Shown: positions 9,564-10,010 of the stretch, piece after piece | How positions within the stretch are numbered: the first letter of the stretch is position 1 | Layout: each line of letters starts with the position of its first letter | Program-made: the position numbers and the translations under genes | Source: a virus | UHGV virus genome: UHGV-1735138 | Direction: 5' to 3' (one strand) | DNA length: 14,855 nucleotides | The notes under the pieces: generated by a model | Database searches by the model: none | Told to the model about the DNA's origin: nothing | The model's input: only the letters and a program-made list of their open reading frames with translations

Positions 9564-9598
9564 ACGCCTGACCAGCGTGAAATAACCGAGGAAAGACC
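9564..9598 (+). promoter_or_regulatory. Conserved junction element: hairpin CACGC-CUGACCA-GCGUG plus AGGAAAGACC start-site motif
   Basis: Perfect 5-bp stem 9564-9568/9576-9580 with the same 7-nt loop as at 7133-7139; AGGAAAGACC 9589-9598, ATG at 9600. Confidence 0.5.
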
Positions 9599-9599
9599 A

Positions 9600-10010
9600 A
9601 TGACCACCACTCCAGGCAAATTAGAGTACCCGTCGGACAAAGGACACATAGACGACGGTAAAAACTATCTCGACGTCATTTTGTGGAATATGAACGTCGG
9701 GCCACGTGCGCGCACTCGTGCGGTTTTTGTGCCAAGACCCAAAGCAGGCAATTTTTCAACCCCTGCTAAGCCCACCCGTCAGGCATCCGTAGCCGCAGCG
9801 CCAGCAGTAAAACGTAAGGGCAAAACACACACCGGGATCGCGATTCGCAGAAATGGTGAGCGGCAAGTGAAACTCCACGAAACAGCGACAACCTGGTGTG
9901 CCTCACCGCATGAAACTTACGACAAGATCACCGGACAGCGTATTGGTGCGCCCGGTCGCTGCCGCCTGCTGCTGAGTTCCATCACTCCGATAGCAAAGAA
10001 AGGGGCGTGA
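9600..10010 (+). CDS. Hypothetical protein (136 aa)
   Basis: Preceded by the conserved hairpin and start-site motif; no family recognised. Confidence 0.55.
   Translation: MTTTPGKLEYPSDKGHIDDGKNYLDVILWNMNVGPRARTRAVFVPRPKAGNFSTPAKPTRQASVAAAPAVKRKGKTHTGIAIRRNGERQVKLHETATTWCASPHETYDKITGQRIGAPGRCRLLLSSITPIAKKGA

Follow-up and report, generated by a model that had tools for sequence, protein, structure and literature searches.

The stretch of DNA analysed here, referred to below as the window, comprises 14,855 nucleotides (nt) of the virus genome UHGV-1735138. It raises the question of what reads a 10-nt motif, AGGAAAGACC, that stands directly before the start codons of four genes in two divergent operons and in places follows a short hairpin with the loop CUGACCA. 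The window covers the left end of a lambdoid prophage, inserted at a tRNA-Ser gene (14–103), together with the early region. A preliminary description of this DNA had proposed that hairpin and motif are more than a Shine-Dalgarno sequence and make up a structured cis-regulatory RNA element, and comparison with related prophages bears this out – the loop is invariant (NUGACCA), the stems covary, and the element is conserved throughout the family. A candidate for the partner of the element is a small RNA (sRNA) predicted to be encoded opposite the leader of the pL transcript. The answer that we favour, to which we give about an even chance of being right, is that hairpin and motif together are the bipartite trans-target of this IsrB-like sRNA, which would block translation of genes for excision, recombination and the replication region, while copies in the leader would act as decoys.

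Six exact copies of AGGAAAGACC and one with a single mismatch were found in the window, a total of seven where 0.83 would be expected; none of 200 shuffled sequences reached seven. The exact copies are at 1433–1442, 4608–4617, 5040–5049 and 5198–5207 on the minus strand and at 7157–7166 and 9589–9598 on the plus strand, and the one-mismatch copy is at 5262–5271 on the minus strand. Every copy is on the sense (transcribed) strand of its own operon. The motif had been described as preceding the genes that start at 1432, 4606, 7168 and 9600, and it does, at a measured distance of 0 nt for the excisionase-like gene xis (ATG at 1432) and 1 nt for the other three. The copy at 5040–5049 that had also been listed is exact, and an additional exact copy at 5198 had been missed. 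Three of the seven copies are in the pL leader, with no gene behind them. The loop heptamer CTGACCA, taken alone within the window, is not significant (4 copies, with 1.25 expected; 5 of 200 shuffles).

Two of the marked genes are in the rightward operon. Upstream of a gene for a 136-amino-acid (aa) protein, the hairpin CACGC-CUGACCA-GCGUG (9563–9579, plus strand) comes right after the dnaB stop codon, and GAGGAAAGACCAAUG (9588–9602, plus strand) supplies the Shine-Dalgarno sequence, a conserved spacer and the start codon. Upstream of a gene for a 74-aa protein, the hairpin GCGC-CUGACCA-GCGU (7129–7143, plus strand) comes right after the stop codon of the cII-like gene ydaT, and GAGGAAAGACCGAUG (7156–7170, plus strand) extends from the Shine-Dalgarno motif to the start codon. 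The other two genes are in the leftward operon, on the minus strand. The gene starting at 4606 had been labelled Rad52-like, a label that has to be replaced, as its 738-aa product matches the PHROG annotation "exonuclease" and is RecE-like. Its translation initiation region is AUGAGGAAAGACCAAUG (4604–4620), and the adjacent CACUGACCUGU (4622–4632) is a remnant of the loop motif with no stable stem in the window; relatives have a proper GAGC/GCUC hairpin at this site. The initiation region of xis, AUGAGGAAAGACCAUG (1430–1445), is within the terminal part of the upstream open reading frame (ORF). About 50 nt upstream of the xis motif is a hairpin, CAGGC-CUUGACCGA-GUCUG (1493–1511), in whose place relatives have a recurrent GGACU-CUGACCC-AGUCC. 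This hairpin is tentatively included in the set of elements; its loop context is different.

The leader copies without a gene occupy 5196–5271 on the minus strand. In the direction of transcription they consist of the one-mismatch motif GGGAAAGACC (5262–5271), the hairpin ACGC-CUGACCU-GCGU (5235–5249), whose loop is CUGACCA in relatives, the hairpin (U)GAGC-CUGACCA-GCUC(A) (5212–5228), and an exact motif (5198–5207). In the Escherichia coli strain JJ1887 the leader has a third hairpin, GGGC-CUGACCA-GCCC. The three CUGACCA hairpins of the preliminary description (7129–7143, 9563–9579 and 5212–5228) have the stems and loops given there, with the correction that the copy at 5212 is not decayed. 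Farther downstream in the leader is a long hairpin with the loop UGACCAAA (5051–5074, minus strand), after which comes GAUGAGGAAAGACCAACG (5036–5053, minus strand). This segment (5036–5074, minus strand) has a fold z-score of −4.5 and is conserved in about 100 compared loci.

The short hairpins have unremarkable folding energies. Folding returned the 9563–9579 hairpin in the minimum-free-energy (MFE) structure; the z-scores were not significant, and the 7129 hairpin was absent from the MFE structure. Because neither the fold energies nor the loop heptamer within the window are significant, the case for the hairpins rests on comparison, not on energy. In Rfam, no covariance model matched the hairpin or the motif at E≤1 in the regions 7100–7170, 9550–9602, 4600–4640 and 1425–1515. 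A scan for promoters and terminators found no promoter-like or terminator-like site at the elements, where the hairpins are marginally stable and without a U-tract.

For the comparison, IMG/VR was scanned for CTGACCA followed after 6–30 nt by AGGAAAGACC, with the stem left free. At least 120 stretches matched, many with two or three matches and on both strands. The same pattern in 596 Gb of genomes, used as a negative control, gave mostly single chance hits in unrelated taxa among the matches listed. A stem of at least 4 bp surrounded the loop in 174 of the 207 phage instances but in only 6 of the 121 unrelated-genome instances among these listed matches, and three of the six stem-bearing controls were true enterobacterial copies. 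The stems vary (GCGC/GCGC, GAGC/GCUC, GGGC/GCCC, GCAC/GUGU, GUGU/GCAC), and further stems (ACGG/CCGU, CCGG/CCGU and ACGU/ACGU) came from a set for which homologues of the 74-aa protein were the only anchor. Nearly all unique regions upstream of these homologues (43 of 45) have the hairpin, with the loop (C/A)UGACCA.

Covariation was measured on 147 unique 23-mers that were picked regardless of pairing. It was 0.315, compared with 0.173 for shuffled sequences (0 of 500 reached the observed value) and 0.07–0.20 when the partners were slid, and double changes occurred at each of the six stem pairs. The stem covariation that had been suspected from the copies in the window is therefore present in related prophages, and its family-wide extent excludes the possibility, raised at the same time, that the element is generic intergenic sequence without covariation. 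Hairpins of the form NNGC-CUGACCA-GCNN are found in hundreds of related Enterobacterales prophages, with the loop invariant and all stem positions covarying. The G.U pairs in the stems favour the mRNA strand in 26 cases and the other strand in 9.

The motif has the layout of a ribosome-binding site – GAGG, a spacer of 8–9 nt, and AUG – and the spacer AAGACC(A) and the Shine-Dalgarno core are equally invariant, so the motif is a ribosome-binding site and more. The start codon comes 0–7 nt after the motif, mostly 1 nt, in 152 of 174 copies among the matches listed. In an alignment spanning the gene junction, the columns of loop and motif have at least 90% identity and the adjoining codons drift at third positions. 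Proteins of the flanking genes share only 35–60% aa identity; the element is better conserved than they are, at the same gene junctions. The distance from hairpin to motif varies (9–25 nt), as does the position of the upstream stop codon, between 10 nt ahead of the first stem base and 24 nt past it. The hairpin codes for the last residues (RLTS) of the upstream protein in some loci and is non-coding in others, so coding constraint cannot explain the loop.

The genes behind the elements belong to only three families (74-aa, 136-aa-type and exonuclease), plus xis, with two more in Pectobacterium phage ZF40. In this phage (L323), hairpin and motif are also found before gp05 (2192–2225, minus strand), the homologue of a 60-aa ORF of the window, and the motif alone is found before gp18 (10878–10893, plus strand); the set of marked genes thus varies between phages. 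Mosaic breakpoints also fall at the element. On the upstream side of the xis motif the window is near-identical to E. coli JJ1887, and on the downstream side the two sequences are unrelated; JJ1887 has a different int-xis module, at tRNA-Leu, and the mosaic junction is exactly at the motif (window 1433–1442; L002 14706–14715).

Opposite the pL leader, on the plus strand, is the predicted gene for an IsrB-like antisense sRNA. Its core (5036–5133) scores 97.1 bits with a covariance model, R1. The core starts with a seed, CGUUGGUCUUUCCUC (5036–5050), followed by hairpin 1 with loop UUUGGUCA (5051–5074), hairpin 2 with loop GGUUUGGUCGCC (5079–5102) and, according to the terminator scan, an intrinsic terminator (5110–5132). 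TATACT at 4985–4990 (plus strand) is the predicted −10 element of the promoter. Transcription would start near 4997, giving a transcript of about 4997–5133. The gene overlaps the motif copy at 5040–5049 and therefore contains the complement of the motif, the anti-motif UUGGUCUUUCCUC.

Several features distinguish the sRNA strand from the leader strand. TATA[AC]T is present on the sRNA strand in 47 of 48 unique variants, 26–34 nt before the anti-motif (49 nt in the lineage of the window), and never on the opposite strand; 20 variants have the extended −10 form TGnTAnnnT. As this conserved −10 element is upstream of the anti-motif, the sRNA should include the anti-motif. Predicted transcripts starting from the −10 element have a median length of 118 nt. 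Of 60 unique variants of the 100 nt that precede the last leader motif, 56 have the more stable fold on the antisense strand (−49.2 vs −40.5 kcal/mol), and a terminator with a U-tract is found on the sRNA strand only. A GATC sequence, a Dam site, follows the predicted −10 element by about 5–12 nt in most variants (..TATACTcagagccGATCAg..; window 4991–5040, plus strand), and methylation-dependent control of the sRNA is possible.

The sRNA is conserved as a structure. The 51 unique variants have in common UUGGUCUU(U/G)CCUC, hairpin 1 (loop UUGGUC), hairpin 2 (loop UUUGGUCR), GGGGUAA and the terminator; the invariant blocks are GGUCUU(U/G)CCU, UUGGUC, UUGGUC again and GGGGUAA. There are compensatory changes at all 8 pairs of hairpin 1. 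The UGGUC sites in the loops are predicted to be unpaired with a probability of about 0.98, and the anti-motif has a median unpaired probability of 0.60, compared with 0.32 for the whole RNA.

IsrB-1, from Gifsy-2, and IsrB-2, from Gifsy-1, are experimentally mapped 88/94-nt RNAs of Salmonella, located between sbcA (exonuclease VIII) and its neighbour and in opposite orientation (PMC2330248). The sRNA gene in the window adjoins the exonuclease operon upstream, on the opposite strand, the same arrangement as in Gifsy-2, and the two hairpins, the intrinsic terminator and the conserved loop UUUGGUCG(G) of IsrB are all present in the window RNA. Model R1 gives 113 bits for a Serratia genome outside its training set and 64 bits for ZF40. 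At the IsrB-1 locus of Gifsy-2 (5978–6081, plus strand) it gives 26.3 bits (E 3e-4), a weak but specific match. In the reverse direction, the Rfam isrB model matches one relative (L270, which has the C form of the motif described below) exactly at the gathering score, 35.0 bits, antisense to the leader. Of 80 protein-anchored loci, 72 have the gene, in every case on the same strand as the right operon. By these features the sRNA, a predicted gene, is a diverged member of the IsrB family. Neither it nor the hairpin/motif element is annotated in RefSeq prophages, and a literature search by sequence strings found nothing relevant on either.

The complementarity between the sRNA and the elements, counted directly as contiguous pairs, covers both parts of the element. 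The complementarity of anti-motif and motif extends through the start codon and comprises 14–17 nt. The 5' segment of the sRNA, CGUUGGUCUUUCCUCAU, pairs over 17 nt with the initiation region of the exonuclease gene, over 15 nt with that of the 74-aa gene (Watson-Crick pairs plus G.U), over 15 nt with that of the 136-aa gene (with sRNA 5036–5050, including one U.G) and over 14 nt with that of xis, in each of the four spanning the Shine-Dalgarno sequence through AUG. The sRNA loops UUGGUCA and UUGGUCG pair over 7 nt with UGACCAG of the hairpins, which is the loop and the first base of the 3' stem. The order of the sites is consistent with antiparallel pairing, the mRNA having 5'-hairpin...motif-3' and the sRNA 5'-anti-motif...loop-3'. 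In the leader, the segment 5036–5074 is the cis target, fully complementary to the sRNA; the copies at 5196–5271 pair with the sRNA over 13 nt and 7 nt and are candidate decoy sites. When the sRNA model was run on the window with filters off, its best non-self matches were the reverse complements of the four gene elements, with that of 9535–9602 at the top (20.4 bits) and that of the 4604–4620 initiation region at 15 bits.

The motif exists in two dialects. Loci have either only AGGAAAGACC (the A dialect, 1–8 copies) or only AGGCAAGACC (the C dialect, 2–4 copies, 7 in ZF40), and one locus is mixed. The 130 loci with an identifiable sRNA copy have 163 unique gene-type 10-mers, of which 161 match the copy within their own sRNA gene exactly. 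In the other two a C has become U, facing a G of the sRNA, and in the AGGAAAGGCC variant, found in two loci, A has changed to G opposite a U, so that wobble pairing is kept. Genome-specific dialects at several sites in two operons point to a phage-specific partner, not the ribosome alone. A region of 16S rRNA, which we presume to be variable among hosts that share the motif, was set aside as the pairing partner of motif or loop. A megablast search for C-dialect phages in E. coli found none, and for this reason a host and a phage origin of the dialect are inseparable. The conservation of the element, the covariation of its stems, the sRNA gene and its structure, the complementarity and the dialect match are established at the level of sequence.

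The direction of regulation (repression), the physiological role and the sponge role of the leader are inferred from these same sequences, and would be as follows. A UUGGUC loop of the sRNA would kiss the U-turn-type CUGACCA loop of the mRNA hairpin, and the kiss would nucleate binding. The target loop starts with C-U-G-A, the YUNR pattern of antisense recognition loops. The UUGGUCUUUCCUC stretch of the sRNA would then pair with GAGGAAAGACCAAUG or its counterpart, and the duplex would hide the Shine-Dalgarno sequence and the start codon, repressing translation of the xis, exonuclease, 74-aa and 136-aa genes. In a lysogen, the sRNA would silence leaky expression of these genes. Upon induction, strong transcription from pL would produce leader RNA, which has the perfect cis site (5036–5074) and the decoys (5196–5271) and could titrate the sRNA. 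In a wider and more tentative proposal, which we rate a little short of evenly balanced, the sRNA would be an RNA "second repressor" of a large family of lambdoid prophages in Enterobacterales, with bipartite operators before excisionase, recombination and replication-region genes of both early operons, a leader sponge, and dialects that correspond to heteroimmunity-like specificity groups.

A number of points weigh against regulation of the marked genes by this sRNA. Some concern the RNA itself: no −35 element for it passed the promoter scan, its transcription start is placed by inference only, and the mapped IsrB of Gifsy-2 starts only 9–15 nt before hairpin 1. Within the anti-motif, partial pairing of the UUGGUC part is predicted. 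The Rfam isrB model (RF01386) gave no match in the window at E≤1, which puts the RNA below the gathering threshold of 35 bits. Gifsy-2 has IsrB and lacks the CUGACCA hairpins and the motif, so IsrB-type RNAs need no such targets. Other points concern the complementarity. As the antisense gene overlaps one copy of the motif, complementarity to the other copies is automatic, and the leader copy may be conserved as the ribosome-binding site of a small upstream ORF. The C-dialect phages may be one clade, in which case the concerted switch would be one historical event. Lastly, the GAAAGA loops at the start of the pL transcript keep their A in C-dialect phages, which the model does not explain.

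The reader of the element could also be a protein, although we regard this as unlikely. A phage or host RNA-binding protein would recognize the hairpin loop and the GGAAAGACC tract and co-regulate the marked genes, in the manner of T4 RegA or of a CsrA-type dimer that bridges a hairpin site and a Shine-Dalgarno site, and the leader would titrate the protein. Hairpins that bind proteins typically look like this one, with a short stem and an invariant 7-nt loop, the variable spacer of 9–25 nt separates two sites, and a uniform dialect within each genome fits a phage-specific protein as well. The 60-aa ORF, which had been labelled CsrA-like, has a weak co-linear match to Pfam CsrA (E 0.1) and is present in 42 of the 47 loci that cover the left arm, and its homologue in ZF40 carries the element itself. 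As the binding factor, however, the ORF was rejected, and the label goes with it. The Pfam match, at 13 bits, is below the cutoff of 27, neither BLASTP with E. coli CsrA nor a profile search of the PDB gave a hit, hhalign gave a probability of 3%, and an AlphaFold model (pLDDT 78) had no CsrA hit in Foldseek. Besides the unsupported relationship to CsrA, the loop CUGACCA has no GGA, and no other candidate RNA-binding protein emerged from the Pfam and PHROG scans. A protein operator also does not predict the complementarity to three single-stranded sites of the sRNA or the variants compatible with wobble pairing.

Less probable still is that the element is a plain, strong ribosome-binding cassette. 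It would be reused wherever translational coupling breaks, the hairpin insulating the ribosome-binding site or stabilizing the 3' end of the upstream message, and the cassette of about 40 nt would be kept as a homologous joint for module exchange, similar to linkers or to the PeSL cassettes of T4-type phages, which are a precedent (PMC2839356). The elements are confined to the few gene junctions that have an intergenic gap, other genes overlapping stop to start, and GAGG with an 8–9 nt spacer is a good Shine-Dalgarno arrangement. There is an excess of mosaic breakpoints across the element, with 16 discordant pairs compared with 1 and 4 at control positions, and the int-xis swap between the window and JJ1887 is exactly at the motif. 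But an insulating hairpin needs no invariant loop and a ribosome-binding site needs no invariant AAGACC spacer. Identical junctions within one genome favour deletions and are unneeded for exchange between phages, promoter or terminator activity is not evident, and a cassette neither predicts all-or-none dialects nor explains leader copies without a gene. A role as a recombination joint may be a secondary consequence.

We consider it very improbable that the hairpins are boxB-like nut elements that load an N-like factor, or that they act like put RNA, in the pL and pR transcripts: sense copies in the pL leader and after the cro and cII-like genes loosely recall nutL and nutR, the 15-nt hairpin with its GC stem has what we take to be about the size of P22 boxB, and there is an intrinsic terminator in the leader (5349–5363, minus strand), but the leader CUGACCA hairpins are downstream of that terminator, no boxA-like sequence is found by the hairpins, no N-like arginine-rich protein appeared in Pfam and PHROG scans, the product of the first pL gene is an acidic protein of 109 aa, the motif is locked at Shine-Dalgarno distance from start codons (which nut does not require), the third copy, after dnaB, is unexpected, and there is no Rfam match.

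The left operon of the prophage, read leftward, contains the integrase gene (189–1217), xis (1217–1432, minus strand; DUF4224), the 60-aa ORF and Gp157 between xis and the exonuclease gene, and the 738-aa exonuclease gene itself (2390–4606, minus strand), after which, in this order, comes the 109-aa ORF, the first gene of pL. The non-coding pL leader, about 950 nt long, separates the 109-aa ORF from a cI-like repressor gene (5913–6326, minus strand). The right operon consists of ydaS/cro, the cII-like ydaT, the 74-aa gene (7168), an O-like gene, dnaB, the 136-aa gene (9600) and a theta-like gene. In the window the dnaB-like helicase gene is split by an in-frame TAA (9388–9390) into ORFs at 8146–9390 and 9391–9561; it is intact as one gene in relatives (L001 13536–14951; L002 21524–22939), and the prophage copy in the window is probably replication-defective. 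Beyond the early region, a direct repeat of 150 nt with 83% identity and a spacing of 3015 nt (11193–11342 and 14208–14357) brackets an LprI-like gene (11411–12334, minus strand) and a 339-aa ORF (13011–14030). This segment looks like a cassette or moron insertion.

Of 5426 complete E. coli genomes, 455 have prophages that match the 4 kb between 6300 and 10300, ST131 strains among them, and 452 of these 455 matches have 95–99% identity. Megablast of the same 4 kb against sequenced phages gave no match. The sequenced phage relatives that a protein search found were only ZF40, whose early genes are in the same order, and two "Stenotrophomonas" phages. Of these two, BUCT708 was examined and proved to be an ordinary family member with 49% GC, not a distant outgroup.

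The pL leader has other conserved features. Near the start of the transcript are two copies of GGAAAGAC (5697–5759, minus strand), which in relatives are the loops of covarying hairpins (GNCNG-GAAAGA-CNGNC); the sequence occurs 5 times in the sense strand of the leader, with 0.024 expected. The first ca. 60 nt of the transcript (CAUCAACGACGCACUAACCACGCGGCAGUUGUUCAGAAA...), which these hairpins follow, are conserved across phages with different promoters and immunity regions, and might be an antitermination or processing signal. Farther downstream is an RprA-like RNA (window 5339–5449, minus strand; L285 855–968, minus strand), to which the Rfam RprA model aligns over its full length, with 37.4 bits in the window and 44.4 bits in L285; the gathering score of the model is 70. 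Both the seed AAUUGCUGUGUGUAGUCUUUGCC and an intrinsic terminator are part of the match. In 26 unique relatives, pL is predicted to give a terminated RNA of about 170–177 nt with two GAAAGA-loop hairpins. The RprA-like RNA may be a prophage mimic of host RprA or a competitor for it. Its seed GUCUUUGCC was considered as a partner of GGAAAGAC and rejected, as the seed variants do not track the dialect. A sequence similar to a tRNA T-arm, CCCGGUUCGAUUCCGGG, is located at about 5400–5425 (minus strand), in a leader segment common to far fewer relatives than the remainder of the leader is; ARAGORN found no tRNA there, and the sequence may be a remnant of a tRNA or of an attachment site.

At the other end of the leader, just upstream of the 109-aa gene, CGCUAUGGAAGC is duplicated (4959–4970 and 5018–5029, minus strand). 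In relatives (L324 6929–6990) an AUG follows the last leader motif, with a short upstream ORF extending into the ribosome-binding site of the 109-aa gene; the window has ACG in place of the AUG. This last leader copy of the motif may be, or may once have been, a real ribosome-binding site.

IsrB was detected in 2008 and has no known target, and the proposed interaction, if true, would supply it with a defined regulon and a mechanism. It would also add an RNA layer to the control of lysogeny, with xis, recombination and replication-region genes silenced, in prophages that are common in Escherichia, Salmonella, Klebsiella, Serratia and Pectobacterium (phage ZF40). E. coli ST131 carries a prophage of this family. 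If the model holds, the A and C dialects provide a compensatory-mutation test ready-made by nature. New RNA families could be modelled on the element and the sRNA, and one possibility for "start-associated" motifs of phages more generally is that a phage-encoded RNA uses them as common docking sites.

Among known systems, a two-site kissing interaction has a parallel in OxyS and fhlA, where the sRNA contacts a hairpin loop and a second site at the ribosome-binding site. In the system of the window the target loop has 7 nt, and the second contact differs in being, by prediction, a linear duplex of 14–17 nt. The nut sites of lambda and P22 are likewise short GC-rich hairpins in the early transcripts of both divergent operons; unlike them, the window has no boxA, N-like protein or GNRA-like pentaloop, and its element is tied to start codons. 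PeSL of T4-type phages has the same succession of stop codon, stem-loop, Shine-Dalgarno sequence and start codon, and is repeated in early regions at module junctions (PMC2839356). It includes a strong sigma-70 promoter and a terminator stem-loop, neither of which is seen in the window element, and it is the stem (GGGG/CCCC) that is conserved in PeSL but the loop in the window element.

The closest comparison for the RNA is IsrB (Rfam RF01386). It has the same place, on the opposite strand between a RecE/sbcA-like exonuclease operon and the immunity region, and the same structure of two hairpins and then a terminator, with the conserved loop CUUUGGUCGG. The window RNA differs in falling below the Rfam threshold, in its predicted greater length (ca. 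118–140 nt, compared with 88/94 nt) and in an extra 5' segment that contains the anti-motif, and Gifsy-2 is without hairpin/motif targets. IsrB is associated with ProQ and has no published target or function, the literature saying only that it has a role in "likely lysogeny maintenance" (PMC5391140). The c4 RNA of P1 and P7, whose target is the ant mRNA, and the CI RNA of P4, with seqA and seqC, are also phage small RNAs with loops that pair with repeated sites in phage transcripts, including a ribosome-binding site, and in these systems specificity dialects underlie heteroimmunity (PMC12197685, PMC3632133). There is no sequence relationship to them, and no Rfam match to the phage antisense-RNA families. 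The window system also differs in its bipartite targets (hairpin loop plus Shine-Dalgarno sequence to AUG), in involving four or more genes in two divergent operons, and in an sRNA that is cis-antisense to the leader and not processed from the target transcript.

As a genome feature, the element itself resembles the SAS and ESAS motifs of Cluster K mycobacteriophages, for which an RNA or protein partner from host or phage is suspected (PMC3203893, PMC12699233). These too are asymmetric motifs that contain a Shine-Dalgarno core and extend beyond it, a few nt before the ATG of some non-structural genes, in one orientation, often with an inverted repeat upstream and with a consensus specific to the subcluster. 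The 13-bp SAS, GGGATAGGAGCCC, and its host are unrelated to the window motif, and the 17-bp imperfect inverted repeat of ESAS has no compensatory changes and was read as a DNA-binding site (PMC3203893). In contrast, the window element has a covarying stem of 4–7 bp and a conserved loop, and a complementary sRNA gene has been identified for it. By this analogy the element is the enterobacterial counterpart of SAS/ESAS – an analogue, and not a member of that group.

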